The position numbers and the translations under genes were made by a program. The notes under the pieces were generated by a model. That model searched no databases. It was given only the letters and a program-made list of their open reading frames with translations, and was not told the origin of the DNA. Of a stretch of DNA of 64,000 nucleotides, positions 845-36,955 are shown piece after piece. The stretch lies in sequence record DRR378314_1813; one strand, given 5' to 3'. The stretch's first letter is position 1; each line of letters starts with the position of its first letter.

Positions 845-1060
845 GGCATCTCCAATAGCCATGAAATCCACGCTTGGTCGGTTAGAGTCTTCATATGAGT
901 TCCTCTGGAGGGGCAGGGCGCCTATCGGTGCCGGCGCTGACAACAAGACTCATGACAAGTGGGCTGAAAATTTTAACCTGTCAGGTACGCAAAACAGGGA
1001 ACACCCGAGGCGTTTGAACAATGAAAACGACTGCGCTTTAAAGTTCATTCGGTTGCTGGA

Positions 1061-1858
1061 CTAACCAACATACTTATACCCGGCATCCTGCAACGCTTCC
1101 TTCAGTGACTCTTCCGGAGGCTCTTCGTAAATGAGCGTTGTTGACGGTGAAACATGGCCAGCGATTTTTTGAGCGACTTTAACTGACTTCTTTTGTTCAT
1201 GAATGATATTCGTCATTAACGTCCTCCGGCCGCTGTGGGAGCTGGATCGCTCAATACCTGCCCAATGTCTCTGCATGAGAGCAAAGTGTTCCTGGAGAGT
1301 ATTGGGAGAATAGGCGCCTCCTTTTTGAGTCAGGAATAGAGGATCCGTCCTTTTCACTGAGGGTTGTGCTGCCAGGCGGATCGCAAGGTGATTTTCTATA
1401 GCCGTTCTCAGCGCAACGTCATTCATCGGAAGATCACGTGATTTACCACGATGTTTTTTGACCTCAGGATAAAAATCCTCCGGCTTGATCTCGGCACCAG
1501 CCTTGACCATGGTTTCAATTCGCTGAATAAGCTGATGGAAATCGTGGACACTAAAACTGATTCGACGCCGCTGGTACGTGGATTTGGATCGCTTTAACGC
1601 ATCGGCACCTTTAGTGTAGGCCGCAGGCAACGCCAGAATTTCTTTAAGCTTGAACGAGCGCTGACCAGAACTTTCAGGGCCGAGCTCGGCGACGTCCTTG
1701 ATCTGAAGAAGCGCGATCTCCTGAACTCGCAGTCCAAGCTTGAAGCTGATCTGAACCAGCGCCGTGTTCTTTTCCGGGTAGCGATGCTTCTGGATAACAC
1801 CTAAGAGGTGGGCGAACTGTTCGGGCGTGAGCACGCGTGCCTGGCCGGTTTTGCTCAT
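1061..1858 (-). CDS. Tyrosine recombinase, catalytic domain only (FimB/FimE-like architecture), copy 1
   Basis: 265 aa from MSKTGQ; GLRVQE (R), YTKG (K), HSGRR (HxxR), AGH, TLIY (Y); start chosen by agreement with copy 2. Confidence 0.9.
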   Translation of the reverse strand: MSKTGQARVLTPEQFAHLLGVIQKHRYPEKNTALVQISFKLGLRVQEIALLQIKDVAELGPESSGQRSFKLKEILALPAAYTKGADALKRSKSTYQRRRISFSVHDFHQLIQRIETMVKAGAEIKPEDFYPEVKKHRGKSRDLPMNDVALRTAIENHLAIRLAAQPSVKRTDPLFLTQKGGAYSPNTLQEHFALMQRHWAGIERSSSHSGRRTLMTNIIHEQKKSVKVAQKIAGHVSPSTTLIYEEPPEESLKEALQDAGYKYVG

Positions 1859-1891
1859 CGGATAAGCTCCTGGTAAGCCGCTCGGATAGAC

Positions 1892-2034
1892 GACCACACA
1901 AAGTACTAAACGTCTGCAACGAAATATCAGTACCTTACCGACCAAAATCCACACAAAGTACTAAAAATACTTAAAGTAAATTCTAGAATAGGGCACTAAT
2001 GCCGGTTTCCACGCAAAGTGCTAAATTCGGCGTC
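1892..2034 (+). repeat. Composite site 1: three 17-bp boxes + IHF site + conserved core
   Basis: Boxes at 1894, 1949, 2009; TATCAGTACCTTA 1925-1937; ACTTAAAGTAAATTCTAGAATAG 1969-1991. Confidence 0.9.
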
Positions 2035-2548
2035 CGACTCAGAGTTCGGAATAGTCTCGCTGGAACGGAAAGATTGGAGGCGAGCAACAAGCCTTGTTCG
2101 CAGGGGACGCAATTAAACACAAGCGAACTTTTGCAGCGCCCCAAATTTCCGACTTTTATTCCGCCTCGAACGGTAAAAACCAGCCCGTTAAGAATCTGGT
2201 AACCGGAGGTGTACTGACTGAGGGTCTGGTTCGCATGTTTCGTCAGATCCCGCGCTTCAGAATAGCGGCCGTGCCAACCGGCTAGCCCGTACGCAGCTCC
2301 TGATCTGGCGGGTGATCGCTGACAGTTCCTTGTGAGCTGGGCCCCTGTGCGGCTCGAGACTGGAAAATGCGGCATTTGCGGGGTAGTCTGAGTTAAATCA
2401 CCGTAAGGAATCGGCCAATGATGGATATAACGCGGCTAATGTTCACTGGTGCTGAGGTCCATCGGCAGCCAGCCTCACCCTTCCGAGCCTTGCCTCCTGA
2501 TTACTTTACCCTTATCCGTCACCTGACAGCTTCGGTGCCGGCGGCTTA

Positions 2549-2607
2549 GCCCAACAGACATTTAAAGGTCATGCTGCGCACGACCATTAAATGCTTAGGT
2601 GTTAGGT
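2549..2607 (+). other. attC-like site (imperfect) upstream of cassette
   Basis: GCCCAAC...CATTTAAAGGTC/GACCATTAAATG inverted repeat...GTTAGGT; 59 bp; right-hand spacer non-canonical. Confidence 0.6.
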
Positions 2608-2688
2608 GCCAAATGGAATTGGCACTCTGGAAACTACATTCAAGAGTTATGGACAATTTTTGAGTGATTAATTTTCGGAGAGTGTGAC

Positions 2689-3048
2689 ATGACTGACAAA
2701 GTGATCGAAGAAATAAAAAGGCAAATGATTGAAGAAGGAGGGTTAAGTGAAGAGGATGTATCCGGCATTAGTCAGGATTTGCTAGATGAATACGAACAGA
2801 AAGCTGTTGAGGACGACCGCAACAAAGACAGTTCAGCAGGTGCAGAGGTATTAAGGACAAACCAGGTAAATGACTTGGTTGTTACAAGAAGAGATGGGAA
2901 ACCGTGCTGGTACTATCGGGATTCTGCAGGCAGCCAGTGTGGTCGAGATCGGTATTGGTATTACTTTGTAGGTAGAGGAGACAGTTATGTGCGATCCGGT
3001 ACGTGTCCCCAAGGCTATCCTTGGTATACGTTGCAGCAGTACCACTAA
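2689..3048 (+). CDS. Integron-cassette-encoded hypothetical protein
   Basis: 119 aa with GGAGAG RBS; lies between two attC-like sites. Confidence 0.75.
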   Translation: MTDKVIEEIKRQMIEEGGLSEEDVSGISQDLLDEYEQKAVEDDRNKDSSAGAEVLRTNQVNDLVVTRRDGKPCWYYRDSAGSQCGRDRYWYYFVGRGDSYVRSGTCPQGYPWYTLQQYH

Positions 3049-3053
3049 ATCGC

Positions 3054-3108
3054 ACCTAACAAGAAAATTCAGGTGACGCCTTTGGCGCACCTGATTTAGG
3101 CGTTATCC
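3054..3108 (+). other. Integron attC site
   Basis: ACCTAAC-AAGAA-AATTCAGG-TGACGCCTTTGGCGCA-CCTGATT-TAGGC-GTTATCC: R''/L''/L'/R' layout with two extrahelical bases. Confidence 0.85.
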
Positions 3109-3163
3109 TCAAGCCTCAATGTTCGCTTTGCGACCAAACCTAACCTCGTCCTTTAGTTACCAA
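3100..3163 (+). repeat. Dispersed ~64-bp element, copy B
   Basis: Homologous to 781-844; overlaps the attC crossover GTT. Confidence 0.65.
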
Positions 3164-3298
3164 CACATTGACCTGCCTCCAACTTTCTAACTCTTTATGA
3201 TCAGAGTAGGCTAATAAAAAAAGGCACTCAGCGTTCGGGTTAACCTGACTCGCCCACACGCAGAATCGAATCATACGGAGATTGGCTTGTACCCACTC

Positions 3299-3667
3299 AT
3301 GAAAGCACTAGTTTACTTGTATGATCGATTGGCTGGAGTGCTCGAGAGAGAGGCCAATGGCTGGGTCGTATTCACCTATGACAAGGAATATGCCGCAATG
3401 TCAGGGCCCCCTCTAAGCTTAAGCTTGCCGGTGCGTCAGGAGCCATTTCGAACAAAAGGGCTTCCAGCTTACTTTCAGGGACTTTGTAGCGAGGGGTGGC
3501 TCCGGCGAATCCAGTGTTTCGAGCAAGGAATCCACCCGAAGGATGATTTCACTCTATTGGTACTGAATGGCCTTGATTGTGCTGGGGCTGTCAGCATCAA
3601 GCCACATTCAGAATTGCTCTCCATCGATAACAGCTCCTCAAGCCGCTACGATGCAAGGAGAGGGTAA
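3299..3667 (+). CDS. HipA N-terminal domain protein (HipS-like)
   Basis: LAGVL..FTYD..PLSLSLP..LPAYF..SEGWLR..DCAGAVSI pattern; no kinase domain. Confidence 0.85.
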   Translation: MKALVYLYDRLAGVLEREANGWVVFTYDKEYAAMSGPPLSLSLPVRQEPFRTKGLPAYFQGLCSEGWLRRIQCFEQGIHPKDDFTLLVLNGLDCAGAVSIKPHSELLSIDNSSSSRYDARRG

Positions 3668-3680
3668 GGATAAAATGGAC

Positions 3681-3823
3681 GACCACACAAAGTACTAAAC
3701 CCTTGCAGCGAGAAATCAATAGGTTACAGTGGGATTTCCACACAATGTGCTAAACAAACTTAAAGTAGTTTCTAGAATAGCCCGCCAGTTCGCAATTCCA
3801 CACAAAGTACTAAATTCGTCGGC
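3681..3823 (+). repeat. Composite site 2
   Basis: Boxes at 3683, 3738, 3798; AATCAATAGGTTA 3714-3726; core 3758-3780. Confidence 0.9.
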
Positions 3824-4008
3824 TAGGTCAGGGTCACGCCCAAGAGTGCATCTGGTATTCTGCCACCCAATCAAACCGAGGAATTAAAACGGTGCTGGGC
3901 TTATCCCGGTGCTGTAGACACTCCGGGCCTATTAAAAAAGCGGTGATCAGAAGTAGAATTTTCAGTAAAACTCATGGGAAAAGTGGTATCTATGAAGCCG
4001 AGGGTGGC

Positions 4009-4146
4009 ATGGTCCACACCAAGTTCCGGAGGAGGCTCTCTTTGGCTGAAGAAACGCACCGCTATCAGCAGTTGGAGCACTGGCTACTGCGAGGCATCAT
4101 TGAAGGGCGCTGGAAGCCGGGTGACCGCCTGCCATCCAGTTGTTAA
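4009..4146 (+). pseudogene. Truncated GntR-family wHTH regulator fragment
   Basis: RYQQLEHWLLRGIIEGRWKPGDRLPS followed almost immediately by a stop. Confidence 0.65.
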
Positions 4147-4662
4147 TTTCAAAGGAATGTAAGACTTGCGACTTCCAGAAATCAGGAGCTTATAGGCGAG
4201 TTTTAAATAGCGAAAATTTGAGCTGCAAATTCTTCATGCGATTTCCTGCCTGTTTTTCAAAATTAGGTGAGACTAATTTGAAAAGCATGCTGTAGTCGTC
4301 TGATTTGATTATTTAAATTTTAGTATTTTATAGCAGCGCGAATGCCAACTGTAAAGGACCCCGCGCTTATTCAGGGGGATTACCATCCCAATCTTGCAGT
4401 TTGGCTGGACTCTCTGCGATAGCATAAATTTCAGTGTCAGCTATATTTCAATGTAGGGCATCTGTGAAAGCCACTCACAGAACAAGGTTATCGACTCTCA
4501 GCATGTAGAGTTTAGAGTTTAATTTCTATTTTTGATGCCGATAATTATAAAATAAGTAGCGGAATACTAAATGACTTTGCAGGGCGCATATTTACTAAGA
4601 GCCTGGCATAATGATTTTTTATTAAATTGCGTTTTATGGATAAATGAAGAAAGGACATAATC

Positions 4663-5037
4663 ATGCATACGGAAGATGGTTTGTTGGACGTGGAGCAGGT
4701 TTCAATTGATTTTAAGGAACGGTATGGGCTTGAAGTTACTCAACCTGCAATGGAATTAATAAGAATCTTAATTTCTTCATATACCGAAGATGTGCCTGAG
4801 AGTTGGCAAATGATAAGCTCATACCTCCAGTTAGATTATGAAGAAGAAAGGACCTTGTTATTAAATAAGCGTTATTATGTTGAGGAAAATATAATTATTT
4901 TGATTAGGTCGATTGCTCTATACAATGAGTGTACTGAGAGAGTCAGTGTTCCAGATATCGTTCACTGGCTATCGTTGGAAGAGGTCCAGTCCATGCTGAA
5001 GCCCTTTCCAACAAGGGTTCCTCGAGAAGGGGGTTAA
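4663..5037 (+). CDS. Hypothetical protein
   Basis: 124-aa AT-rich ORF with AAGGA RBS; abuts next gene. Confidence 0.6.
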   Translation: MHTEDGLLDVEQVSIDFKERYGLEVTQPAMELIRILISSYTEDVPESWQMISSYLQLDYEEERTLLLNKRYYVEENIIILIRSIALYNECTERVSVPDIVHWLSLEEVQSMLKPFPTRVPREGG

Positions 5038-5039
5038 CA

Positions 5040-5432
5040 ATGATTCTTTGGCAAAGTGTAATTCATGAGTATTCAAAAAATATAGTGACTTTGTCGACAG
5101 CATTTTTAGCCTTGACCGTTTCTTTTGCTAGCAATCTTCTTCAGTTTGCAGACGAATATCGATGGCTTTTAATTGTGTCATGGATATTTTTTGGGATCGC
5201 AGTAATTCTTGCGTTATTGACCTTTGGCTCTCTAACTAAATATCTTATGGATGAAGATAAAAAAGCAGGAGATAGGGCATTATCATTATGCAATTTTTCT
5301 TTTTGGTCGGTAATGATTGCTATATCTTGTTTTACTGTTTTGGCGGTTTTGGCGTCAATTAACTTCAATCCTCAGGGCGTTGAAAATAACAATAATGACT
5401 CTACACACGAAACCTCGGAGGTCAAAGCCTAG
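5040..5432 (+). CDS. Small membrane protein (about 3 TM)
   Basis: Three hydrophobic stretches. Confidence 0.65.
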   Translation: MILWQSVIHEYSKNIVTLSTAFLALTVSFASNLLQFADEYRWLLIVSWIFFGIAVILALLTFGSLTKYLMDEDKKAGDRALSLCNFSFWSVMIAISCFTVLAVLASINFNPQGVENNNNDSTHETSEVKA

Positions 5433-5463
5433 GTGGCCAAGCTCGCCCGGTTCAAGCAACATG

Positions 5464-6075
5464 TCACATCCACGAGCGCGTCCCGTGCGGCCAATTCTTT
5501 TTCCTTTTTTGGCATTCAGTTCTTGACCGGATAGTACCCCCTAATAGAAGACCACATTCTTGACATTTCTGAGGCTTCTTTCGTGTCAACTCCATTTCCT
5601 CGGATCTCTCCGATGGATCTGGACTTTGTTCGACTACGCTGATTGTTCCGCCGCTTTCCCGCTCCAGTTCATCAGGCTTTTCGGGGCTATCACAACGTTT
5701 TCGTTCATTCTGATCCGTAGTCGTAACTGGGTTCTCTCTAGTCTTGTGATCTGCAGAGCTTAGATTTCCATCATTGGGTAACATGGATTCATTCATAAGA
5801 ACCGTTAATCTGAGATTTTTCTGATAATTTAAAGAAGCGATAACCTGATCAATATCTTCCCCTGTCGGACGTCTTTCGCAAGTAGGATTCGTAAGTGGCT
5901 GGATAAACTCTTCATTTTTTACCCGTTTATTGATATTCAACTGCTCATCGATACTTTTCTCACTGTTCAGAGAGGTTCGGTTGCTTGATGTAATAAAGTA
6001 AATGAATTGGTTAAGAATTTTCATTATAAAAATTTGAACTCCTTTGGATGGGAAAACAGTGTAGTCGCTGACCAT
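5464..6075 (-). CDS. Hypothetical protein
   Basis: 203-aa ORF, no recognisable motif. Confidence 0.4.
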   Translation of the reverse strand: MVSDYTVFPSKGVQIFIMKILNQFIYFITSSNRTSLNSEKSIDEQLNINKRVKNEEFIQPLTNPTCERRPTGEDIDQVIASLNYQKNLRLTVLMNESMLPNDGNLSSADHKTRENPVTTTDQNERKRCDSPEKPDELERESGGTISVVEQSPDPSERSEEMELTRKKPQKCQECGLLLGGTIRSRTECQKRKKNWPHGTRSWM

Positions 6076-6203
6076 GTTTCTCTTTAAGGGGGAAAGTCTC
6101 AGTTTTAACAGCTGTTTCTGAGCGGGACAGGAGATATACAGTAGGCTTTAACTATAAAGGTACACTTTCTGTTGCGAACGCATATGTTTATGGTTGTGGG
6201 CTT

Positions 6204-6497
6204 TTGCAGGCGTTTGATGTCCGTCAGGTATTCTATTCAGAAATGCCCGATGGCTCGGATTTTTGGGAAAAGCACATTGATTCTGAGCATGATTATGACC
6301 AGGTTGATTCGGAACGCGTAGATAAGCTTCTGTCAGAGCGAGGTGTCAGTGAGGATGACATTATGCTTTTGAAGCTTTCCCTGTCAGGCTGGAGTTATGT
6401 CGATCTTGCAAACAAGTACGGGGGGACGCCGGACAAATACCGAGTGAGAGTTGGTCGAGTGCTTAAAAAGGCCAATATCGATAGCGATCTGCTGTGA
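6204..6497 (+). CDS. Small protein with C-terminal sigma70-region-4-like HTH
   Basis: LSLSGWSYVDLANKYGGTPDKYRVRVGRVLKK; start uncertain. Confidence 0.55.
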   Translation: MQAFDVRQVFYSEMPDGSDFWEKHIDSEHDYDQVDSERVDKLLSERGVSEDDIMLLKLSLSGWSYVDLANKYGGTPDKYRVRVGRVLKKANIDSDLL

Positions 6498-6747
6498 GGC
6501 TATGTCTTTAGCTCGTTAGAGCGCTTGGCTGAAACCTTCGGTCAATGGGATAGCCAACCCAAAGAATTGATCTTTCGTGAGTTTCGGCACATAGCCTTTG
6601 CGCGAAGGGCAGCCAAGTGGCATGGATACCCGAATGAAGGAACCTCTTAACGTAAAATCATTACCACTTGAGCCAACGAAGGTGAAAGCCGCTTTTGGTT
6701 CCAGATTCTTTTGGTAGATGCCATCAGATGTGAAACGCTACCGTTGG

Positions 6748-8649
6748 TCATGTCGGAGTTGGGCACGCATGCACTCGAGCCAAGAGTATAGCCAATAAAT
6801 CCTTGACTCCAGTCGCGGGATAATGACGTTCGTCACCTGAGGATCGGCTCAATGTGGGCTCGCTGAGAAAGATGGCAGTTAGAAGAGACCCATGTGTTGA
6901 CCTAAAGGAAAAGCTGTCCATATCTCGGAACTCATCCAAATTGAAATCAACGTCAGCAATTGCAAGCTTCGCTCGCCCCAGGTGCAAGTTTGCTATTGGG
7001 AAAATAACGCCATTAGAGAGTTTTGTTATTTCTAACCTAAGCTTCACACTGGAATTCTCTAACCAACAAGTACCTCCAGAAGAATAACAACCGTAGTTCC
7101 ATCCATTGGAACTGAGAAGTTGCTTGTCCACGGATATCCCAAAATCTTGGGTAAAGCTACAATCATCATCCAGACTTTCAAGAAGAATATTGCTAAATTC
7201 AATTTCTTTTCCATTGTTATCATATTTATCGATTACTACCTGTGTTTCATTCTGGAATATCCTATAGCCATCGATTAGATATCCTTTTCTATACTTTCCT
7301 AAAAATGAGATTCTAGCAAAGCTATTTTTTGAAAAAGAAGCCTTGAGCTTCACTTCTTTTGGGGCAAAGTCCCCCGATTGATCCCAGCTTGTTATGGTCG
7401 AACTCTGGATTATATCCCCATCTGGAGTTTGAGAAATTTCATTTATGGTCCTAAAAACCTCGCCACTCTTCATGTATTTCGCATTGAGTAATTTTTCGGT
7501 TTCGGACACAAATATTCCAGTCCTGCGTATTCCACTATAAAGCCCATCGCAGTTAAAGTCTCCTGAATCGACGATAACCTGATTTTCGTCATACCAACTT
7601 CTATAACTATAGCTTCCATCGCCCGCCATGCAGAATTGAAAAGGTCCAATATTTTTTCGGTTGCCAGAAGAGATATTACCCGAATATTGACCATAGCCTA
7701 GATCAATTTTTTTGCATTTTCCGGATTCTAAAATACCCTCTTCAAATTCTACCGACTCGCAATTAATTCGCTCATGCGCATAAAGTCGACCAACGCCATG
7801 AGGAAGGCTATTTTTGACGGGGCCATGGAATTCGATTTCTTCCTCTTTGTCATAAGAAAGAAAGGTTAATTTTGCGTTTTCAGAGTTCACTAAGCCTTGA
7901 TTGTCAATTGGCCCAGAATATCTCATCCATTCATAGTAATTTGGCTTGTAAAGAGTCTCCGGTAATCTTAAGAGCGTACGATCGTTTGCACTGCTGTAAA
8001 AGATGTGCGACTGCTTACCTGACTCTCTAAATCCATCAGAGAAGTAATATGAAACGTTATATCCCTTTGCCGGCTCTAATTCATTAACTATCGAAAAAGA
8101 TGTTGAGTTCTGGGGAAAAGAAAATTCGCCATTTAACACCTCATGTCCTGTGTCCTTTCGATTAAGATTTAGGTTAATCATTGCATCTAAAGGGTAAGGC
8201 TTTTCAAAGTTTAAAATAGCGGACCGATCATCCGTATCAATGTTTTCTAGCGTTGGTGTCGGTAAAGGTTCCAGTAGCAATACAAACCAAGTCCCTTTTA
8301 AGAAATCCTTGTCCACGACCTTTTTTACTAGCACTGCTGAGAAAGAAATAGTCACAACGGTCAAGGCAATTATAAGGATAGTTAAGAATATGTGTCGATA
8401 AACACCGCCGTCTTTCCTTAATCGTTCAATTCCAATGAAACAGAGCACCAGAAGAAAGAATAGTGCTACCCCTTCAAGAAGGACATCGGTATTCGGCGAA
8501 AAAAATAGAGCAAAAGCTACCCAATAGAATACTAGGGCGACGCATTCAATATAATGTCGTATTTCTAGTTTAGGTTTGAGGTTCGGTGCAGGGGGGAATA
8601 CCCCTGATCCACCGTCATTTTCTTTTTCAGAATGGTTAATTTTAAGCAT
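6748..8649 (-). CDS. Membrane-anchored hypothetical protein (N-terminal TMs, beta-rich soluble part)
   Basis: 633-aa AT-rich ORF; 3 hydrophobic helices; MORN-like PHGVG/YSG motifs. Confidence 0.7.
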   Translation of the reverse strand: MLKINHSEKENDGGSGVFPPAPNLKPKLEIRHYIECVALVFYWVAFALFFSPNTDVLLEGVALFFLLVLCFIGIERLRKDGGVYRHIFLTILIIALTVVTISFSAVLVKKVVDKDFLKGTWFVLLLEPLPTPTLENIDTDDRSAILNFEKPYPLDAMINLNLNRKDTGHEVLNGEFSFPQNSTSFSIVNELEPAKGYNVSYYFSDGFRESGKQSHIFYSSANDRTLLRLPETLYKPNYYEWMRYSGPIDNQGLVNSENAKLTFLSYDKEEEIEFHGPVKNSLPHGVGRLYAHERINCESVEFEEGILESGKCKKIDLGYGQYSGNISSGNRKNIGPFQFCMAGDGSYSYRSWYDENQVIVDSGDFNCDGLYSGIRRTGIFVSETEKLLNAKYMKSGEVFRTINEISQTPDGDIIQSSTITSWDQSGDFAPKEVKLKASFSKNSFARISFLGKYRKGYLIDGYRIFQNETQVVIDKYDNNGKEIEFSNILLESLDDDCSFTQDFGISVDKQLLSSNGWNYGCYSSGGTCWLENSSVKLRLEITKLSNGVIFPIANLHLGRAKLAIADVDFNLDEFRDMDSFSFRSTHGSLLTAIFLSEPTLSRSSGDERHYPATGVKDLLAILLARVHACPTPT

Positions 8650-8730
8650 GTTGTGCCATCCAAGGATTTGATTTTTCAGCGCCGTTGGAACATCAAATAG
8701 TCGTAGTTGGGGATCATCAGGATGCTGACT

Positions 8731-9762
8731 TCACGAAGGTTTTAGGATTTTTGGCATGCTTGTTTCCGAATCAATTCGGCCAAGAGAATGGCCTGAATAC
8801 TGTTTGAGTAGGTGGTTTACAACATCATCACCGTATTTCTCAAACCAGAATTCACCCATCTTTTTCAATTTTCGGAGGTTGGATTGGCTGATATCATCCA
8901 TTGCATCGTCTGGTGGATTAGGAAGCCCGGTCTGTGCTTTCATTTCCGCATTCACCCTTATGTAGTTGCCATCAGATATAATCGTGGAGGCTTGATAGGC
9001 AACTACGCGTTCATCGGATAGAAGGTCGAGAATATGTCCTTTTAAAAACCACTCTAACGCACCCCATTTCTGTGATTCTGGGCCATTTATCTTTCGGGTA
9101 CGGTAGCCAGTACCGACAGAAAGCACGCGAATGTCTTGAACCGGGTTATCTGGCCATGCTCTTATGGTCTCAGCAATCGCACACATCGTAGGGTTATTTG
9201 CGGTCACGCCCCCGTCTACAAGCCAGAGCGCATTGTCAGATCCATGCACATTCGTTTCTTTAGTTGGAAAATAGGTCGGAGCAGCACTCGAGGCATCTGC
9301 AACGAGCCATGAAGCAAGTTTTCGATGGGAGGTATCGGTAGACTTGATGACAACTGGCTTGCGTTGCTCAATGCCGTAGGTCACGGCTAACACGTGCTTC
9401 TGTCGAGGAACACTTCCTACCTTTGCCGTTCCGAATTTACTTTTCAAAAGGCTTGCCTTGCCTTGCGACTCGTATTTGGGCGCGTTAATCCCGTCGAGTT
9501 CGAACCAACCTCGGTTCTCTTTGAAAATTCGTTTGGCGTTTTTGTAATTGTACAGTTCGCTTATTTCAGACATTTCTAGGCTGGTTGTGGATAGCGCAAG
9601 AGCGATAATGCTTCCTGTGCTGGTTCCAGCATAAAAATCGATACAGTCGCGAAGTGTTTTTTGATGATCTGATTTGAGCTTGTTCTCAATTAACGCGAGA
9701 AAATGCGCTGTTGCTGCGCCTCTGATTCCGCCGCCATCCAGTGACAAAATGAGCTTTGACAT
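8731..9762 (-). CDS. Patatin-like phospholipase
   Basis: LSLDGGGIRG, GTSTG, SAAPTYF, DGG motifs. Confidence 0.93.
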   Translation of the reverse strand: MSKLILSLDGGGIRGAATAHFLALIENKLKSDHQKTLRDCIDFYAGTSTGSIIALALSTTSLEMSEISELYNYKNAKRIFKENRGWFELDGINAPKYESQGKASLLKSKFGTAKVGSVPRQKHVLAVTYGIEQRKPVVIKSTDTSHRKLASWLVADASSAAPTYFPTKETNVHGSDNALWLVDGGVTANNPTMCAIAETIRAWPDNPVQDIRVLSVGTGYRTRKINGPESQKWGALEWFLKGHILDLLSDERVVAYQASTIISDGNYIRVNAEMKAQTGLPNPPDDAMDDISQSNLRKLKKMGEFWFEKYGDDVVNHLLKQYSGHSLGRIDSETSMPKILKPS

Positions 9763-10213
9763 GGAAAGACCTCCTTGTTTCTGTTCGATTGCTGCACTCT
9801 TCCTGAGATACTCCGCAGCCTGAGATTTGCTTCAATAGGTCAATTAATGATCAGCTTAGTCGAAATTCTCCATATGTGTAGAAACGGGTTTCGGCTCCGC
9901 ACTTGGATGCATATTTGGCTCAAAACGTCTGCGACTGGGCAATACGAACTACATGCGGTTAGGTTAGGCACGGAAATGGGCGCTAATGCGTCTATGTGCC
10001 GAAGAATTGATGGAGCACCGGTGCCATAACTTTCAAGAGTTTGTATTCTACGGCCAAGTGGGTATTGAACTGGTTTTTTCCTATAGATTTCAGTATATTG
10101 CTAACTTGCAAGGAGCATCCTCGGGACATGGATATCTGAATCCGAAAATCCATATTCGATACCTGTACCTCGCGCAATCCTAGGAAAGCCAAAAGCTAGA
10201 GGGGAGCAGGTCA

Positions 10214-10356
10214 GACCACAGAAAGTACTAAATTCCCAGCACGACAAATCAAGAAGTTGGGCGTGAAACTCCACAGAAAGTGCTAAAGAAACTTAAAGTA
10301 GATTCTAGAATAGGGCGATGGCCTTGTGTTCCACACAAAGTACTAAATTCGTCGTC
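10214..10356 (+). repeat. Composite site 3
   Basis: Boxes at 10216, 10271, 10331; AATCAAGAAGTTG 10247-10259; core 10291-10313. Confidence 0.9.
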
Positions 10357-10454
10357 TAGCTCACGAGCCGGATTTTTCCAATTCCGGCTGGACCTAATAC
10401 GGGGTCAGGGTCACCTAAAAAAACGACTTTGATGTTCCTCTGATACTGTGATAA

Positions 10455-10470
10455 CTGTATATACAGACAG
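10455..10470. promoter_or_regulatory. LexA (SOS) box
   Basis: CTGTATATACAGACAG = CTGT-N8-ACAG, 22 bp before ATG 10493. Confidence 0.75.
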
Positions 10471-10492
10471 TGCTTTTTCAGGAGCGAATCAA

Positions 10493-13207: not shown

Positions 13208-13350
13208 ATGAATGGCGAGCTCGCGGATTCGGGTCAGAGTCAGTGCTTCGTCAGGGGTATCCCACAGAGCCAAGATCTCCCGGCAAACAGAGCGAATGGG
13301 ATTCCACCTCAGGCCCTGTGTAAACATCCCCGTTTTAGTTGCACTGATGA

Positions 13351-14622: not shown

Positions 14623-14633
14623 GACTTATTTCC

Positions 14634-19584: not shown

Positions 19585-21156
19585 TCATCGTGCAAACGGT
19601 GGATAGTGATGCGACCAGGGCCGCTCTAGGATCGTCCATGAGTCTCTTCTGGGCTGGGATTCGAACCCACCGTCGTGGAATAGTGCACCTATCTCAAGAA
19701 TTCTGTCGCGTGAGACCTTGACGTTGAGTTCGTGACTGAGGTCAGATAACAATGCTCCAGCTCTAGGCTTGAGCGTCGTGGGCCAAGTGCCTCCGCATAT
19801 CCGTTGTCTTGTTGAGGACCGGGGCGGATTAAGCTCCGCGAGAGGGTCAACGTCCGGCCAAAGCCACTCCATCACTTGGTTTTCTGTAATGCGCCACAGA
19901 CATTGACTCGCTGTGAACTGGTTAGGGGAATAAATGTTCGCAGGATCCCATGTTGGTCGATAGGGGGGGGTAGCTGTAATGACACGATCCATCAAATGAA
20001 TTCCAGATTGGTAGAGTTCCGCGAACAGCAGCATGAGACTTCGCTCAAAATAGCGCTCCTCAAATTTGGCACCCGGTCGCCAATACGAATCATCTTGCCA
20101 ATATTTTTCACGCTGTCCCACGATGAGTAACCGATCTGAAGCGTCCGGCCATACGGTCCAATTCACGACGTTTGTCCACCAATACTCAATCGGTAGCGAA
20201 CATTGCCAGGGGCTGAAATATTTCTGCGTAACCGCATCCCACCATGCAGAGATCGCAAAGCAGAACGGACAGAGATAGTAGTCAGCGCTGGCGAGCGATT
20301 GGAAGGAATGGTGCCTGAAATCACCCAGCCTGAGTTGATGGCCTTTTTCATGATGGCAGTTACACCACACCAGGATGTCGTTGTAGCACTGTTCAATGAT
20401 CCGCTGGGCCTTTTCGGGAGGACGTCTAATCGGGTCTTCTCGTTTAAGGCGATCATACCAGGAGGCCTCGGACGGCGGACGTAGATTTAGAGGGCGTAAT
20501 GGGGATGTGAGGCTCTCTATGGAGAATTCAGGGAACACCACCCCCAACTTTTCGAGCTCGACTTGGGAGTGGCCGGATGTGGTGGCCAGTTGAAAAACTG
20601 GGAAAGCGGCACTGGATTTAGTAACGAGCCGGGGCCAAGCGTATCGTAGATTCGAGTCCCACAGATACGTAAAACAAAGGTCGAAGATTTCAACCTCATC
20701 TAAAAGGGCGTTTTCATCAAAGGCGTTGTCTTTAAGAAAGCACTGTACTCGCTCAATTGGTGCGATAAGCTCTGCGTGAAGCCTGGGATCTAACGGAAGG
20801 AAGTCCCATTCAGGCACGCCGCAACTCGGGCAGGAGCGTTCGCGTAATTTCGAACTTTGGGGCCACGGGTGGCCGCACCGCTCACAGAGATTTTGGAGGA
20901 GCGTGCCATGGGCTGGGCACCGATGAAGCCAGCAATAATCAAACAAAGTGTTGTGGTATAGGCATTTCGCGCATTCAGGGCAGTGTTTTCGGGGGGAATA
21001 GTCCCACAGGGCTTGGTTGTGGCCAAAGGTCTCGCGAAACACGGTAGAGAGCGCCACACCTGGGTTTGCGATCAGGCGCTGTCGAAATTCCGCGTAGAAA
21101 CTTTGAAAGGGTGATGCCATCCATTGCCCTGAGTTAAAGCGGCTGATTTTGTCCAT
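19585..21156 (-). CDS. tniQ: TniQ/TnsD-family target selector
   Basis: CPEC..CPAH..CERC..CPSC zinc motifs; downstream of the AAA ATPase; true start uncertain. Confidence 0.75.
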   Translation of the reverse strand: MDKISRFNSGQWMASPFQSFYAEFRQRLIANPGVALSTVFRETFGHNQALWDYSPRKHCPECAKCLYHNTLFDYCWLHRCPAHGTLLQNLCERCGHPWPQSSKLRERSCPSCGVPEWDFLPLDPRLHAELIAPIERVQCFLKDNAFDENALLDEVEIFDLCFTYLWDSNLRYAWPRLVTKSSAAFPVFQLATTSGHSQVELEKLGVVFPEFSIESLTSPLRPLNLRPPSEASWYDRLKREDPIRRPPEKAQRIIEQCYNDILVWCNCHHEKGHQLRLGDFRHHSFQSLASADYYLCPFCFAISAWWDAVTQKYFSPWQCSLPIEYWWTNVVNWTVWPDASDRLLIVGQREKYWQDDSYWRPGAKFEERYFERSLMLLFAELYQSGIHLMDRVITATPPYRPTWDPANIYSPNQFTASQCLWRITENQVMEWLWPDVDPLAELNPPRSSTRQRICGGTWPTTLKPRAGALLSDLSHELNVKVSRDRILEIGALFHDGGFESQPRRDSWTILERPWSHHYPPFAR

Positions 21157-21203: not shown

Positions 21204-22178
21204 TTAATTGTCATTGCTTTGAATCCGTTGCCCAGCCAGTGTGACGTTGGATGACACCAGGCCTGAGATCCGGATGGCCTCCTCTACCATCTCCTCACTG
21301 AGATTCTCAATACCGTAACGAGGGAGAAAGTCGGCCAACAGTGGGTTGGTGGTGATGGTGAACGACTCCATCCCCCAGCCCGTCAACTTGTACCGTTTTT
21401 GGTAGTCGCGAAACACACGCCAGAACAGCGGAGCGGCGCTGGCCAACCGGAAGCCCGAGTCTTTTTCCTCCAACAAAATGCCTTGAACGATACTACAATT
21501 GGATTCGAACGGGTGCGGCAATGTGTCGTATTGGGCGAGGCAGTCACGAACCTCATTGAGCGACCTCAAACCATGGAAGGTCAAACGCTCGCGAAAGAAG
21601 CGTCCATCAATGTGGGCATAGGCGCTTGAGGTCATCGTCTCGTCCAGCCGAGCGGTTTCCTGATCATTGCCAACGAATACCGTCAACAGCAACCTCTTTT
21701 TCACACGCAATTTATTGTAGAGGTCAGCGAACGCGTCAAATTGATCCGGAGTTAGGCGCTGGCACTCGTCGACCAATAACACGATTTGTGCAACGCCACC
21801 GAGATCGGCCGCATCCATTAACCAGTGGGCAAAACTGATCGACAACTGATAGGAACTTTGCCATTGGCTCGTTTTGATGCCTGCATCTGCACACAATTGC
21901 CAGTTTAGGGACTTGACGCTGGGTTTATCGAGCCGCTCCACGGATGTGACAAACACCGGTACCGGGCGTTGACGTCGATCACGGAGCTGACGGCCAAGGG
22001 TTTCGAGGGCAGTGGTTTTGCCGACACGCGCCGGCCCGGTGACGATCGCCCCCACTTTGCCGGTCCAAAGCCATTGCGTTAGTTTTTGGAAAAATTCCGC
22101 CGCTGGCGCCGTTCCTAAGGTCGGGTTAAACGGGGAAAGTAACGGCAAGTCGTAATTTTGAAAGGGCTGCCTGTCCAT
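21204..22178 (-). CDS. tnsC: TnsC/TniB-like AAA+ ATPase
   Basis: GPARVGKT Walker A, LLVDECQ Walker B; context. Confidence 0.8.
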   Translation of the reverse strand: MDRQPFQNYDLPLLSPFNPTLGTAPAAEFFQKLTQWLWTGKVGAIVTGPARVGKTTALETLGRQLRDRRQRPVPVFVTSVERLDKPSVKSLNWQLCADAGIKTSQWQSSYQLSISFAHWLMDAADLGGVAQIVLLVDECQRLTPDQFDAFADLYNKLRVKKRLLLTVFVGNDQETARLDETMTSSAYAHIDGRFFRERLTFHGLRSLNEVRDCLAQYDTLPHPFESNCSIVQGILLEEKDSGFRLASAAPLFWRVFRDYQKRYKLTGWGMESFTITTNPLLADFLPRYGIENLSEEMVEEAIRISGLVSSNVTLAGQRIQSNDN

Positions 22179-24077
22179 CTATAGCCTCCTTGGGTCCGGG
22201 TAGGGTGTTGGGGACCAGCTGTATGAGGGTTGTCGTTTCGGTTGCGCAGACGGACTGTCCGCAACTTCAACGGTCATTGCAGCTTTGGCTTCTTCACCGG
22301 TCGCCAGCCACGATTGGCCATCGGGCGTGACTTCGAGATACAACGAGAGCAAATGAGCTGCGACACTGGGGGTGCGTTTTTGATCGAGTAGCGCCCGGAA
22401 ATAACCGGTGATGGGATCACTTTCAACATATCGAGAGACGCGTTTCTCTTTGAATAGCCAACTTCTCGTCGCATAGCTGTGCGCAAACCGACGCCAGGTC
22501 CGGGGCCCTTCAAGTGAACCGAGCGATCGTCCCTGCAGGGTTCGGGCGCTCAGGGTACGAATGTCACGGCGGTCAAACTCAACAACGATACGAGTGTCGT
22601 CGGGTGCCAGAGACAGCAGCCCATTGCCCGAATAACGGCAGTAACAAAAATGTACGTAAGGGTGTCGACGTTCCTTGGCCGAACGATGGACCGGCAAGGT
22701 CATTGAAGAGCGAAACGGTTGCCACCCAGCCTGTTGGCCGCCGCGTGGCCAGCGTATCCAGTGTTGCCTCAGGTGTTGATCGAACACCTCCATCGGACGT
22801 TGGCCCGCCAGGTTAGGCATGGCCGAGTGATTGTAGTTGGCGATCTGCAGGTAAAGTGCCTCGATGAGACTCTGAAAGCCCAGCGGCGGCACCTTCTTGG
22901 CGTTCTTTGCCGATTCTCGCCTTGCATCTTTCGGCTGAGTGCCCGTAGTTGAGTCGAAGCGGTGGCCCAGTTTCTGCTCGAGATAGTCAAAGACATGCTC
23001 CACCAGCCACCGGGTTTTGGGCTGGCCGGCCAAACCGAATGAGACCGTAGCGCCCATGGTGTTGCATAGAAACTGCTCGACCGTATTAGCATGGTGAATC
23101 CAAGCGTTGTCAAACTGCACAGTACCGAAGGTCATGGGCCAAGGGCGCTTCAGGTGCGCTGGAATCGCGGGGAGGACCAGATCGTCGAAGCCTGGGGTCT
23201 GGATGGTGGGAATTTCCCGAAGCGTCAGACATCGGTCAAAGAGAGCCAGAACATCGTCTTGGTTCGGGGCGGTCGTGGGGCGCAGTTCAAACCCTAGTAT
23301 GCCTTGGCTGGCCACATCGATGGCCAGCAATAGAGTGCATCGTTTCAAGCGCAGCTCAATCACTTCATCGTTGAATTGAATCGCGATGTTCGAATGCAGA
23401 TGCATCAGGTGTTCGTCGATCTGCACGGTGGCCAGGGCACGGTGCGCGGAGAGGGATGCCCCCATGCCGATAAATCGTTCTTTACGTGGCGTTGGCATCT
23501 GCAGCTCAAGTTGGCGGCGCCTAAAATACCGCCTCACGGATTCCGCCGCCCGGGAGTCACTGGTGAAGGGGTAACGAGTCATCGGCCAATGGGCTTCCCG
23601 CAGACACCGCAAAAAGATGTGGTGAAGCCGGCTGGCTGTCATGCGCTGGGACGTTGGGGTACGGCGGTGATCTTCCAGGATGGCAGTGTCCAACTTGGCT
23701 TTGAGAGAGGGTTGCTGTGCCAGCAGTGCGGTAAATGCACCGGTCGCGCCGGTGCTCTGGTCCAGTTGCGGTAGGTCCTGCTGCCTCTTCGGGGCGGACA
23801 GTCGGACGTGGGGAATCAGAGCGCGGGTTAATGGTGCGGGCTCGTTCAGGTCTCCACCCAGGCAACGCTTCATGAGTTGGCTGACATACCCGCGAGAGTA
23901 GCCCAATGCCTCGGATACGCGAATGCAGGATCCAGTCGCCAGCACCCGGGCTACGATGCGCTTGTTTCTCAGAAAGCCCTTGCGCCTCGCAGCCGGTAAC
24001 GAGCTCTCATCGATGATCGGCCACCGGTTCATATCCACCAAAGCGGGCTCCCGGATCAGCCGCTCCCGCCAACTCAT
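22179..24077 (-). CDS. tnsB: TnsB-like DDE transposase
   Basis: VQIDEH...QFDNA...LVEHVF DDE triad; YNHS..P motif. Confidence 0.8.
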   Translation of the reverse strand: MSWRERLIREPALVDMNRWPIIDESSLPAARRKGFLRNKRIVARVLATGSCIRVSEALGYSRGYVSQLMKRCLGGDLNEPAPLTRALIPHVRLSAPKRQQDLPQLDQSTGATGAFTALLAQQPSLKAKLDTAILEDHRRTPTSQRMTASRLHHIFLRCLREAHWPMTRYPFTSDSRAAESVRRYFRRRQLELQMPTPRKERFIGMGASLSAHRALATVQIDEHLMHLHSNIAIQFNDEVIELRLKRCTLLLAIDVASQGILGFELRPTTAPNQDDVLALFDRCLTLREIPTIQTPGFDDLVLPAIPAHLKRPWPMTFGTVQFDNAWIHHANTVEQFLCNTMGATVSFGLAGQPKTRWLVEHVFDYLEQKLGHRFDSTTGTQPKDARRESAKNAKKVPPLGFQSLIEALYLQIANYNHSAMPNLAGQRPMEVFDQHLRQHWIRWPRGGQQAGWQPFRSSMTLPVHRSAKERRHPYVHFCYCRYSGNGLLSLAPDDTRIVVEFDRRDIRTLSARTLQGRSLGSLEGPRTWRRFAHSYATRSWLFKEKRVSRYVESDPITGYFRALLDQKRTPSVAAHLLSLYLEVTPDGQSWLATGEEAKAAMTVEVADSPSAQPKRQPSYSWSPTPYPDPRRL

Positions 24078-24748
24078 GACCGTCGGACCTTGGTTGAGTA
24101 ATCCAGGGGAGCATCGTCCAGGTTAGCCGTCAATTCACCCGCATGAAGCAAACGGAGCAGGGCAATTTCCTGTTCCAAAGTGCCGTCCCGGTCTCCGGGG
24201 TCCACGATTTCGCCGAAGGGCAACGGGGATTCGACTTGAAACCGCTCCAGCAGTTGGGATTCGGCAGCCAAGGTGTCCAGGTCGCGATTCAGGTAAAGCG
24301 CACGCACAATCTCCAGCCAGTTTTGCGCTTCCACGATTCGAGCAATTACCGATTCGTTGCTGATGACCTGAAATTGCAGCCCCTGGCTCGAAAAGAACGC
24401 TTCCAGCGGCCCCCATAACGCCGGATCAAGCTCCCCTCCAGGCTTGAGTTCGACTACGTGTCGTTGATTGCCGTCCACCACATAAAAATCCGGCTTATAT
24501 CGACGTTTGCCGACCTGCAGGGCAAAGGGCTGGGGGACGTAAGCACTAACCGTGGGATTGCCTTCAAGGAGCCCTGCGTACAAGTGCTCCGCATGGGAGT
24601 GGAATTCACTGACGTGTGGGTGTTTGAGCATCCGTTGCACGCGCACATCGGCGGCAATACGAAACGACCGGTCGGCACGGTGCTGGACCGGCACCAGCGC
24701 ATCGATCCGGACCCGTGGGGCATTGGGGTGGGAAAGTGCTCGCGACAT
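24074..24748 (-). CDS. tnsA: TnsA-like endonuclease
   Basis: SHAE..YVPQP..YKPDF..VELK; GAGGAGG RBS; ATGA overlap with tnsB. Confidence 0.8.
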   Translation of the reverse strand: MSRALSHPNAPRVRIDALVPVQHRADRSFRIAADVRVQRMLKHPHVSEFHSHAEHLYAGLLEGNPTVSAYVPQPFALQVGKRRYKPDFYVVDGNQRHVVELKPGGELDPALWGPLEAFFSSQGLQFQVISNESVIARIVEAQNWLEIVRALYLNRDLDTLAAESQLLERFQVESPLPFGEIVDPGDRDGTLEQEIALLRLLHAGELTANLDDAPLDYSTKVRRS

Positions 24749-25013
24749 GGGGCCTCCTCGACAAACCGGTCGATAACTGGGGGCCATGGCGCACGTCTTC
24801 ATCGGTGCGGAGGGTGTCCTTCTTATTGTGATCAATTATTAATCAATTTGCGTACTCTGTCCAGAGTCGGTGGTTTGACGATTGTGGGTAGTTCGTCAAC
24901 CGGCCCCCGTTTCTTGCGGTTTTCCCGCTGGTTGCCATACTTAGGGGACCGGAAGAGGGCGCTTGGCCAGGCCTTTAATTCCACCCGATAATTGACAGAA
25001 CCCCGGAGGGGAA

Positions 25014-25754
25014 ATGTCAAAATCCATCACCAGCGCGCGATCATTTCCCCGCCCGTCTCGAAACAAGCGTTCGCTCGGGTTTCAGGAACGTCCCCTGGTG
25101 TCGTTCCCGATCACCGAAGTGACCATCGATTGGGACCGGCTCATCGACAAGCGGCCGTTGCTGATGGAGACCCTCGACACCATGCCCAAGTACCTGCTCA
25201 AGCCCGAGGTACTGACGCTGTTGGAGGCCGAGACCCACCCCATGCACCGGCTGATCCTGGATCTGATGTGGTGCACCGGCGCCCGGGTCTCCGAGGTGCT
25301 GGCGATCACGCCGGCGAGTTTCCACGACGACGGCTACGACTTCGGGGTGGTGCTCAAGACACTCAAGCAAGGGGCAGGGCGGCCGAGCAAACGCAGCCTG
25401 CAACGCTCGCCCAAACGCTTCATCCCGATCCTCGACCGGGACTTCCAGACCCGGATCCAGAGCTACCTGTGGCTGGGGAAGTTTCGGAAGGACGAGCGGA
25501 TCTTTCCGATCACGCGCCAGGCGGTCAGCGCCAACATCGATCGGCTGATCGACCAGGTGGGGGGAGAGCCGCCATTCAAGATCGGCTGCCATACCTTTCG
25601 GCACAGCTTTGCGGTGCATCTGCTGCTGCACGGGCGGCCGCTGAAGTTTGTGAGCCAGCTCCTCGGTCATCGGAGCGTGGAATCGACGGAGGTGTATACG
25701 AATGTGCTAACGTTCGATGGGGCGCATTTTTTGGAAGGCGTGGATTTTCACTGA
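25014..25754 (+). CDS. Tyrosine recombinase / resolvase-like
   Basis: GARVSE, TLKQ, HTFRH, LGH, VY; visibly GC-richer than its flanks. Confidence 0.9.
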   Translation: MSKSITSARSFPRPSRNKRSLGFQERPLVSFPITEVTIDWDRLIDKRPLLMETLDTMPKYLLKPEVLTLLEAETHPMHRLILDLMWCTGARVSEVLAITPASFHDDGYDFGVVLKTLKQGAGRPSKRSLQRSPKRFIPILDRDFQTRIQSYLWLGKFRKDERIFPITRQAVSANIDRLIDQVGGEPPFKIGCHTFRHSFAVHLLLHGRPLKFVSQLLGHRSVESTEVYTNVLTFDGAHFLEGVDFH

Positions 25755-36843: not shown

Positions 36844-36927
36844 AGGAAAAGCTCCTGGAAAGCCGCTTGAGCGCATGGATAGGGTGGAAATTAAAATCCG
36901 TAATAATGTTATTTCAACGCATATCGT

Positions 36928-36955
36928 ACTGCGCATAATGTATATTATGTTAAAT
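36928..36955 (+). other. dif: Chromosomal dif site (XerC/XerD)
   Basis: ACTGCGCATAA-TGTATA-TTATGTTAAAT, 26/28 identical to E. coli dif; the KOPS seen converge on it. Confidence 0.93.

Follow-up and report, generated by a model that had tools for sequence, protein, structure and literature searches.

Composite sites bordering a phage-defence island beside dif are very probably left ends of a Tn7-like transposon family

Introduction

The two ends of the transposon Tn7 are asymmetric, with transposase sites that are spaced on the left and packed on the right. Here we describe a 64,000-nucleotide (nt) stretch of DNA from sequence record DRR378314_1813 (referred to as the window), in which three composite sites of about 150 bp border the modules of a phage-defence island that abuts the chromosomal dif site, and we present the evidence that these sites belong to a Tn7-like transposon family. 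The accessible text of PMC8649781 gives Tn7 three left-end and four right-end TnsB sites, and it records that insertion beside or inside a resident Tn7-like element produces multiple left and right ends. The family described here resembles Tn7 in its arrays of presumed transposase sites of ~20 bp at both ends, its TG...CA termini, its 5-bp duplication, its constant spacing between insertion point and recognised site and its defence cargo. It differs in that the attachment site appears to be dif, with either side used; in that its TnsB lies outside the Pfam rve model and its selector outside the Pfam TniQ model; in that the interval from tnsA to the right end holds cargo and a recombinase gene, with a Xer-like gene beside tnsA; and in that right ends appear to be repeatedly lost while left ends stack.

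Tyrosine recombinases have been linked to target selection in another Tn7-like element. As set out in the accessible parts of PMC10293859 and PMC11014353, the target selector of Tn6022 consists of TniQ together with TnsF, a XerH-like protein derived from a tyrosine recombinase, and the Tn6022/AbaR-type islands have, as is proposed below for the island described here, grown by repeated insertion. Tn6022 targets comM, and the XerC-like/dif-like diversification system described in the accessible part of PMC11014353 is separate from it; the word 'dif' occurs nowhere in the accessible text of PMC10293859. Whereas TnsF has, according to these same portions, lost its catalytic site, the R, HxxR, H and Y residues are present in the Xer-like protein of the present family, whose elements lie at dif. 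This protein differs further from TnsF in being a protein of 246 amino acids (aa) with the catalytic domain only, encoded outside the tniQ operon, and its role in targeting is putative.

Sites of replicon resolution are used by other transposons as well. The Tn5053/Tn402 'res hunters' employ TniA, TniB and TniQ to insert beside the resolution site of another replicon by way of the site–recombinase complex; their targets are plasmid and transposon res sites of serine resolvases, they have no TnsA, and they encode a resolvase of their own. The family described here shares with them a multimer-resolution site as landing pad, but its target is the chromosomal XerCD site. The IS1202 family of 'dif site hunters', as presented in the accessible text of PMC10132070, comprises insertion sequences of 1.5 kb with a single gene, which land 5 bp from the XerC arm. 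They too have a TnsB-related DDE transposase, TG...CA termini plus one more binding site further in, 5-bp duplications and an oriented insertion beside dif or pdif (same source), whereas the elements described here are 2–47-kb cargo elements with TnsA-, TnsC- and TniQ-like genes, lying 35–37 bp from either arm. Finally, Xer-exploiting integrative elements and the pdif modules of Acinetobacter are bounded by dif-like sites and moved by Xer (accessible parts of PMC11014353 and PMC8754128). These modules resemble the present island as modular cargo accumulating at dif or dif-like sites, but here it is transposon left ends that form the borders, and only one dif is present.

The three sites were first noticed in a prediction made from the letters of the window alone (the original prediction), which took them for working sites of a DNA-rearrangement system and gave, as one model, an undescribed system of recombinase and integration host factor (IHF) by which cargo modules accrete. 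As to whether such ends have been described, the answer is divided: their architecture is of a known kind, that of Tn7-like ends, and for the particular family with its dif homing we found no description, although a prior one is possible. Subscription journals and supplementary tables aside, the literature yielded no Tn7-like element homing to dif, and, within the same limits, neither the Xer-like core gene nor the solo left-end stacking of this family.

Results

Three composite sites of fixed layout

Proteins encoded in the window were scanned with Pfam, NCBIfam, PHROGs and PADLOC. Relatives are cited as DNA loci (L numbers) or as genomes compared (G numbers), and the genus survey covered 191 Marinobacter genomes, one per species.

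Nine 17-bp boxes, all on the + strand, start at 1894, 1949 and 2009, at 3683, 3738 and 3798, and at 10216, 10271 and 10331. Each has 0–2 mismatches to CCACACAAAGTACTAAA; 0.05 matches are expected by chance, none of 100 shuffles gave nine, and no box was found on the minus strand of the 64 kb. In all three sites the start-to-start spacing is exactly 55 and then 60 bp. A match to the IHF consensus, WATCAR-N4-TTR, stands 31 bp from the start of box 1 (1925–1937, 3714–3726 and 10247–10259), and the 23-mer ACTTAAAGTARWTTCTAGAATAG stands 75 bp from it (1969, 3758 and 10291; chance expectation 0.00). The motif TTCG(G/T)CG follows 3′ of box 3 in all three sites. The linkers have diverged, with pairwise identities of 68–74% over 160 nt. 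All these features, including the common orientation and the linker divergence, had been reported in the original prediction, which was accurate here, and the arrangement as a whole exceeds chance by far.

Comparison with relatives changed the extents of the sites. By blastn, homology with about 35 Marinobacter loci starts at 1887–1889, 3676 and 10214 and stops about 150 bp inward (among the matches listed). The predicted starts of 1892, 3681 and 10214 were thereby moved to about 1887, 3676 and 10209, and the units extend over ~1887–2040, 3676–3830 and 10209–10365, each starting 7 bp 5′ of box 1 with T(G/A)GACGA. We refer to them as left ends 1, 2 and 3, for reasons given below. Left end 1 (1887..2040, + strand) has the terminus TAGACGACC, in which TG has become TA; its 23-mer occupies 1969–1991, and TTCGGCGTCC follows its third box. 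Left end 2 (3676..3830, + strand; 23-mer at 3758–3780) is the best preserved, with an intact terminus, TGGACGACC, and it is the only one in the window to keep the terminal TG. Left end 3 (10209..10365, + strand; 23-mer at 10291–10313) has lost about 5 terminal nt (GGTCAGACC).

The layout is shared by relatives. A pattern scan of one genome per species gave at least 120 stretches, which together with two plasmid stretches made up 122 loci for comparison. Among the matches listed, 37 of the 122 had two or more boxes (35 from Marinobacter, one from a plasmid and one from a metagenome-assembled genome labelled Alcanivoracaceae), and the remaining 85 were lone chance box matches in unrelated taxa. 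Again among the matches listed, the 55/60 spacing was found in 40 of 41 distinct left-end copies, and the IHF-consensus match occupied one fixed position in 32 of 40. The consensus of 40 copies reads, in order, TGGACGACC with box 1, 14 nt, wATCAr-N4-TTA, box 2, cAAACTTAAAGTAaATTCTAGAATAG, ~16 nt, box 3 and TTCGTCGTCC. A search for distant DNA relatives found the sites on two plasmids of Marinobacter nauticus VT8. Rfam models at gathering scores had no match in positions 1–38000, composite sites included.

Two short symmetries were seen within the sites. After box 3 (2026–2036, 3815–3825 and 10348–10358) stands TTCGTCGTCCA, the reverse complement of the terminal TGGACGA, so that each left end is bracketed by an 8-nt inverted repeat. 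The 23-mer contains a 10-nt palindrome, ATTCTAGAAT.

Partner ends and target duplications in relatives

In many loci a partner right end lies 2–47 kb downstream of the left end and consists of two or three inverted boxes packed at 20–23 bp. These right ends finish ...GGTCGTCCA-3′ (also read ...CTGTGGTCGTCCA), and the whole element thus reads 5′-TG...CA-3′. We compared the flanks of 13 left/right pairs for target duplications. Four pairs were flanked by a perfect 5-bp duplication: ATCCT around a 33-kb element with tns genes (G018), CCCAA around an element of 2.85 kb (L011), ATTCT around one of 7 kb (L123) and ATTTG around a 14.3-kb element in another genus (G373). One further pair agreed at 4 of 5 bases. 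Since a 5-bp match has a chance of about 1/1024 per pair, the four perfect pairs are not accidental.

TG...CA termini, a packed inverted partner and 5-bp duplications are the marks of Tn7/Mu-type DDE transposition, and homologues of the TnsA/TnsB/TnsC/TniQ-like block that lies on the minus strand of the window are encoded by complete elements that have target duplications. We therefore conclude, with high confidence, that the ~150-bp composite sites are left ends of a Tn7-like family of heteromeric DDE transposons. As proposed originally, they are working-type sites of a DNA-rearrangement system and they border separately acquired cargo modules. Module accretion likewise stands; the recombinase/IHF mechanism offered for it gives way to transposition, in view of the termini, the packed inverted partner, the duplications and the tns genes.

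Judged from the sequences, the three 17-bp boxes would be binding sites for the TnsB-like transposase. The IHF-consensus match between boxes 1 and 2 suggests that this host bending protein probably binds and folds the end, and the 23-mer between boxes 2 and 3 appears to be a conserved element specific to the left end, which may be an inward promoter.

The family reaches plasmids too, as ends are present on pMAQU01 and pMAQU02. A 236-bp mini-element on pMAQU01 (L001, 8001–8233) has spaced boxes at one end, a packed inverted pair at the other and no target duplication, and pMAQU02 (L002, 300–470 and 2898–3042) holds degenerate left-end remnants. At the innermost site of two right ends (L079 and L143) we observed the same extension as after box 3 of the left ends (GGGCGACGAATTTAG).

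The tns genes and their link to the ends

The tns block of the window is encoded on the minus strand. Its TniQ/TnsD-like target selector (523 aa; 19585..21156) contains, besides an invariant CxxC-x17-CxxH, two further CxxC motifs. Pfam found no domain in this protein and only 7 homologues were present in a set of 5.8 billion proteins; with a profile, the top three matches in the PDB were TniQ chains (E values of 9e-4 to 5e-3), aligned in the zinc-finger region. The adjoining genes encode a TnsC-like AAA+ ATPase (324 aa; 21204..22178; AAA_22 at 3.3e-13 and phrog_296, 'DNA transposition protein') and a TnsB-like DDE transposase (632 aa; 22179..24077; phrog_310, transposase, at 3.8e-12). Invariant acidic residues of the TnsB-like protein are D221/D254, D323 and E360, in the arrangement D...D-x36-E, and its N-terminal ~90 residues contain many invariant positions. 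The best PDB matches of a 15-sequence profile were TnsB chains (1.2e-4 and about 1e-3), followed by retroviral integrases. The TnsA-like endonuclease (24074..24835; start codon uncertain) matched NF033179 (1.5e-5) and PF08722 (1.3e-3) weakly, and the position of its gene beside tnsB is conserved in relatives.

Across the 191 Marinobacter genomes, the left-end pattern was found in 39, tnsB in 16, a 265-aa tyrosine recombinase here called the MSKTGQ recombinase in 30, and the Xer-like gene in 23. The left-end pattern was present in 11 of the 16 tnsB genomes, 21 of the 30 MSKTGQ recombinase genomes and 13 of the 23 Xer-like genomes. When right ends at dif were also counted, 14 of 16 genomes with tnsB had an end, as compared with 46 of 175 without it (Fisher p = 2e-6), and six genomes had left end, tnsB and recombinase in this order on one contig in the orientation of the window. 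Co-occurrence with the recombinase as against tnsB, the check proposed originally, did not discriminate, both genes being members of one element family: the site is carried by 21/30 and 11/16 genomes, respectively, against 39/191 overall. In a 401-genome sample of the order, the TnsB family was found in 16 genomes, 11 of which were absent from the genus searches and were taken as non-Marinobacter. In two genomes, G373 and G249, the box sequences differ while the layout and the dif-side position are the same. By sequence comparison, the boxes thus appear to co-vary with TnsB across genera, which we count in favour of their belonging together.

Several observations speak against assigning the sites to such transposons. 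Right ends and inverted boxes are both absent from the window, so that present mobility cannot be demonstrated from it, and the termini at sites 1 and 3 are damaged. Target duplications were absent from 8 of the 13 left/right pairs; we assume that these pair ends from different events in rearranged arrays. The Pfam rve model did not match the TnsB-like protein, the PDB profile matches of the TnsB-like and TniQ-like proteins are weak (E values of 1e-4 to 5e-3), and the TnsA-like protein scored 24.6 bits with NF033179 against a cut-off of 110 and also fell below the curated cut-off of PF08722. Moreover, 28 of the 39 genomes with the left-end pattern lack a tnsB homologue, which implies that many copies are non-autonomous or relics, and TnsB of the Marinobacter elements is only 30–48% identical to that of the window despite near-identical boxes.

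The last two observations would also suit a different reading, in which the sites are ends of a DDE transposon moved by another transposase, encoded elsewhere, rather than by TnsB of the island. We regard this as improbable. The two elements with perfect duplications and full gene sets, those of G018 and G373, encode the TnsB family (neither was scanned for other transposases, and a second one is possible), ends are present in 14 of the 16 tnsB genomes, and the boxes change where TnsB changes genus. Hence the TnsB-like protein is the preferred candidate for the transposase of these ends.

Position of the elements relative to dif

The chromosomal dif of the window (36928..36955, + strand; ACTGCGCATAATGTATATTATGTTAAAT) agrees at 26 of 28 positions with E. 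coli dif as given in the accessible part of PMC3025954. A search of the 64 kb that allowed up to 9 mismatches of 28 found no other dif-like site, and the cumulative GC skew peaks at this one. The dif 28-mer is single-copy in 156 of the 191 Marinobacter genomes; where dif and dnaA lay on one contig, the distance between them was 48.6–52% of the chromosome in three of four genomes and 26% in the fourth.

Inspection of 21 right ends showed that 15 are followed by dif and four abut the next left end, the other two being remnants or the plasmid mini-element. A pattern of TGTGG, 40–50 nt and dif was found in 39 of the 191 genomes, and in 39 of 39 a 7-mer like the right terminus followed TGTGG. The distance from this terminus to dif was 33 bp in two genomes, 34 bp in two, 35 bp in 11, 36 bp in 15, 37 bp in seven, 39 bp in one and 41 bp in one; that is, it was 35–37 bp in 33 of 39, with a pattern that permitted 31–41 bp. 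Right ends also occur 34–35 bp from the XerD arm in L123 and L147, two loci in which a single dif stands between a pair of elements that face each other. Wider distances of 39, 46, 59 and 64 bp were seen as well.

The placement extends to other genera. G373 has a complete 14.3-kb element with the recombinase, Xer-like, tnsA, tnsB, tnsC and tniQ genes, and its terminus is 35 bp from dif. In G249 three packed boxes of another sequence lie 33 bp from dif. In G503 dif lay 66 kb away and in G273 a 3-mismatch site lay 149 kb away, distances that give no clear linkage, and the dif patterns tried had no match in G226, G320, G353 and G437. In total, at least 60 of the 191 Marinobacter species genomes have either a left end or, at dif, a right end. 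Two loci do not fit a simple placement of the right end: in L056 it is a left end that lies 35 bp from dif, and on contig 1 of G004 a distance of 160 kb separates the right end at dif from the nearest left end. On balance we are confident, at about the level at which we assign the left ends, that the family homes to the chromosomal dif, placing its right end ~36 bp from either arm.

Two further arrangements at dif were noticed. L029 (6472) and L056 (3625) lie on one contig and contain two left ends that face each other 5 kb apart, one of them 35 bp from dif, which suggests an inversion across dif. In the window, TGGTCACCGCC (36990–37000), 34 bp past the XerD arm, agrees with the element terminus at 7 of 10 positions and stands at the end distance seen in relatives; it may be a relic of an element across dif, or a chance match.

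Two tyrosine recombinases

The Xer-like tyrosine recombinase (246 aa; 25014..25754, + strand) has the catalytic domain only and is encoded divergently from tnsA as a conserved core gene. It matched PF00589 (2.4e-17), the XerD model (1.1e-22) and XerC-like and XerD chains in the PDB, and, as said above, it retains the R, HxxR, H and Y residues. Its gene adjoins tnsA in 15 of the 16 tnsB genomes. In the 23 genomes that have it, most copies are 84–98% identical and the full-length ones 88–98%, apart from a few fragments and one 49% paralogue; in other genera the protein is 61–65% identical and its position is unchanged. The reading frame 25014–25754 is fixed by mismatches to three relatives, which fall on the third codon position. 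Reading 24992–25762 instead as an unknown 256-aa open reading frame (ORF) was ruled out by internal stops in relatives and by the codon-position test. The DNA of the Xer-like gene is 86–93% identical between elements whose TnsB is only 30–48% identical to that of the window; either the gene has passed from element to element or it is much more strongly constrained.

The MSKTGQ recombinase (265 aa) is present in two copies on the minus strand, one of an older element to the left (copy 1; 1061..1858) and one of the youngest, dif-proximal element (copy 2; 36046..36843). It has no sequence relation to the Xer-like protein. In every complete element inspected its gene lies 0.3–1.2 kb inside the right end. 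A conserved region 5′ of the gene holds the palindrome AAAATCCGT...ACGGATTTT. A palindrome written AAAATCCGTAATAATGTTATTTTAACGGATTTT was observed 55–90 bp 5′ of the gene in the window (36895–36927), L079 (3948–3980) and L153 (1836–1866); the right arm of the window copy is degenerate and lies 4 bp from dif. This palindrome could be the recombinase's own site.

The original prediction based its recombinase/IHF model on the position of site 1 just upstream of recombinase copy 1; the sites would then be att-like or arm-type sites at which the MSKTGQ recombinase, with IHF, adds or removes modules. Left end 1 indeed lies 29 bp 5′ of the copy 1 start codon, the IHF-consensus match is conserved at a fixed position, and the site occurs in 21 of the 30 genomes with the recombinase. 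The model does not hold, as this junction is explained by an element landing 29 bp upstream of the gene, at the 59-bp position described below, and copy 2 has no such site upstream. In relatives the recombinase adjoins the right end rather than the left, and it is absent from 18 of the 39 genomes that carry the site. The element ends are of the form TG...CA, and the duplications vary in sequence with no common crossover core. By inspection, the 265-aa protein opens directly with its catalytic domain and thus has no arm-binding domain. An att-site role is therefore very unlikely, and we retain the assignment of the sites as transposon left ends.

Regulatory and Xer-based alternatives

The sites might now be mainly regulatory, with a repressor on the boxes, a promoter in the 23-mer driving each module and a transposon origin that is incidental. 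At 3751–3778, over box 2 and the 23-mer of site 2, stands an inward promoter-like pair resembling -35 and -10 elements (TAAACA, 16 nt, TAGAAT) whose columns are kept in the 40-copy consensus, and a + strand ORF follows each site. A promoter scan, though, found three promoter-like sites against 2.1 expected from shuffles, no better than chance, and regulation leaves the TG terminus, the inverted partner ends, the duplications and the dif position unexplained; such a role as the main one is highly unlikely. Entry of the modules by Xer recombination at dif, in the manner of Xer-exploiting elements or pdif modules and with the boxes as passenger sequence, is hardly credible even though the island abuts dif and encodes two Xer-like or tyrosine recombinases, as the single dif-like site means that the modules are not dif-flanked, the element ends lie 35–37 bp from dif rather than at it, and complete elements are flanked by 5-bp duplications.

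Arrangement states and proposed stacking

The surroundings of dif in the window and its relatives fall into three states. In state A (G031, G066 and G084) the order is recombinase, upstream region, ~520 bp, right end, a AAAATCCGTAATAATGTTATTT...CGT flank and dif; the right junction reads CCA/AAAATCCGTAAT.../dif, and the ~30 bp beside dif repeat the element's own recombinase-upstream sequence. In state B (window copy 2, G061, G153 and G171) the recombinase gene and its upstream region are followed directly by dif, the right end being absent; in the window this upstream region is 36844..36927 and reaches dif with no right end between. In state C (window site 2, L051, L091, L034, L035 and L147) a recombinase gene or its remnant is followed by an upstream region cut at ...ATAAAA and then by a left end.

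The remnant at window site 2 (3608..3675) comprises the first bases of a recombinase gene and its upstream region. The HipA-N ORF is fused at its 3′ end to this remnant, whose last bases, ...GATAAAA, directly precede left end 2. Local alignment of the remnant to both recombinase-upstream regions gave p of about 0.003–0.007, and its blastn matches were the recombinase-upstream flanks of L051 and L091. In window state B, 31 nt separate the cut point ...AAAA from dif; with the 5-bp duplication added, a right terminus would stand at the modal distance of 36 bp. Site 1 has a flank that stops at the position at which, in L147, a right end lies 59 bp from dif. The flanks of sites 1 and 2 are thus cut 59 and 36 bp from dif, which points to successive landings between a resident recombinase gene and dif. 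For comparison, the recombinase gene of L079 is separated from the next left end by 586 bp, within which a right end lies. A point on the other side is that the similarity of site 3's left flank to the recombinase-upstream region is not significant (p of about 0.07).

These states can be arranged as a history. A newcomer would land 36 (or 59) bp from dif, between the resident recombinase gene and dif, giving state A or C. The right-end segment would then be lost, probably between the ~30-bp direct repeats made by the insertion, giving state B and restoring the landing pad for the next arrival. In this way the older cargo modules would come to lie to the left, with a solo left end at the head of each as a scar. 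We favour, with moderate confidence, the view that three Tn7-like transposons piled up beside dif in this way and built the phage-defence island. The order of events and the manner of right-end loss are what we infer from the junctions: the loss may have occurred by short-repeat deletion or by action of the MSKTGQ recombinase on its palindrome. A simple crossover between the recombinase-upstream palindrome and dif was excluded as the deleting event, because the window keeps an intact dif beside the palindrome; given the ~30-bp direct repeats in G031, G066 and G084, repeat deletion fits better than such a crossover.

Solo left-end arrays recur elsewhere. In 6 of the 7 genomes with at least two pattern hits per contig, all hits point the same way, and L012 has three left ends, two of them identical and 1908 bp apart.

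Discussion

Nearly all circular bacterial chromosomes have a single dif site, which conserved host proteins read. If the homing described here is true, dif would be a very general new attachment site for Tn7-like cargo transposons, and this homing would have natural counterparts in the Tn5053 family, which hunts res sites, and in the small 'dif hunters' of IS1202 type. With ends in at least 60 of 191 genomes, it would also be a main route by which Marinobacter gathers defence systems at the replication terminus; the defence cargo of the window comprises a cyclic-oligonucleotide-based antiphage signalling system (CBASS), PD-Lambda-1 and a NACHT protein.

How dif might be recognised is suggested by the Xer-like gene beside tnsA, as if a recombinase had been borrowed as a target selector, after the manner of TnsF in Tn6022. 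It is possible, though we hold it only tentatively, that the Xer-like protein reads dif. Equally tentative is a fuller proposal, in which the Xer-like protein and the divergent TniQ would together read dif or XerCD-bound dif, the right end would be lost through the second recombinase or the ~30-bp repeat, and dif would become a one-way stacking point for defence cargo. Right-end removal would then both freeze the element and rebuild the landing pad, and the solo left ends would be growth rings of the island. Stacked solo left ends could explain sharply bounded island 'modules' without a cassette recombinase and can be used in island annotation.

Other features of the window

The cargo of the island was annotated by domain and defence scans. 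The HipA-N ORF (3287–3667) lies in module 1, and the next module contains a patatin-type effector (8731–9762, minus strand). Beyond left end 3 follow a 919-aa ORF (10448–13207), two PD-Lambda-1-like genes (13351–15992) and a HipA_C-like kinase (17676–19049). The NACHT protein (25912–30468) and the type II CBASS (31048–35179) lie between the Xer-like gene and recombinase copy 2. To the right of recombinase copy 2 (36046–36843) are ordinary host genes. No public sequencing run had more than 10% of the words sampled from 1000–10999.

An ORF with the HipA N-terminal domain only lies ~1 kb inside a left end both in the window (3287–3667) and in the element of G001 (L124, 9023–9322), and it may be a regular passenger of the dif-side transposon family. 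Positions 1–39 form an inverted 39-nt pair with 13319–13371, which is 87% complementary and starts TGTAAACATCCCC; the window may begin inside a full copy. As a candidate for Tn7-like ends this repeat (1–39 and 13319–13357, starting TGTAAACA) was rejected; according to L115, where the same 39-nt end adjoins what by eye is the C-terminus of an IS3-type transposase, it is the remnant of an insertion-sequence end. Just 5′ of the 919-aa ORF, at 10446–10478, stands a palindromic CTGT...ACAG sequence (AACTGTATATACAGAC), which has the appearance of an SOS-box-like operator.

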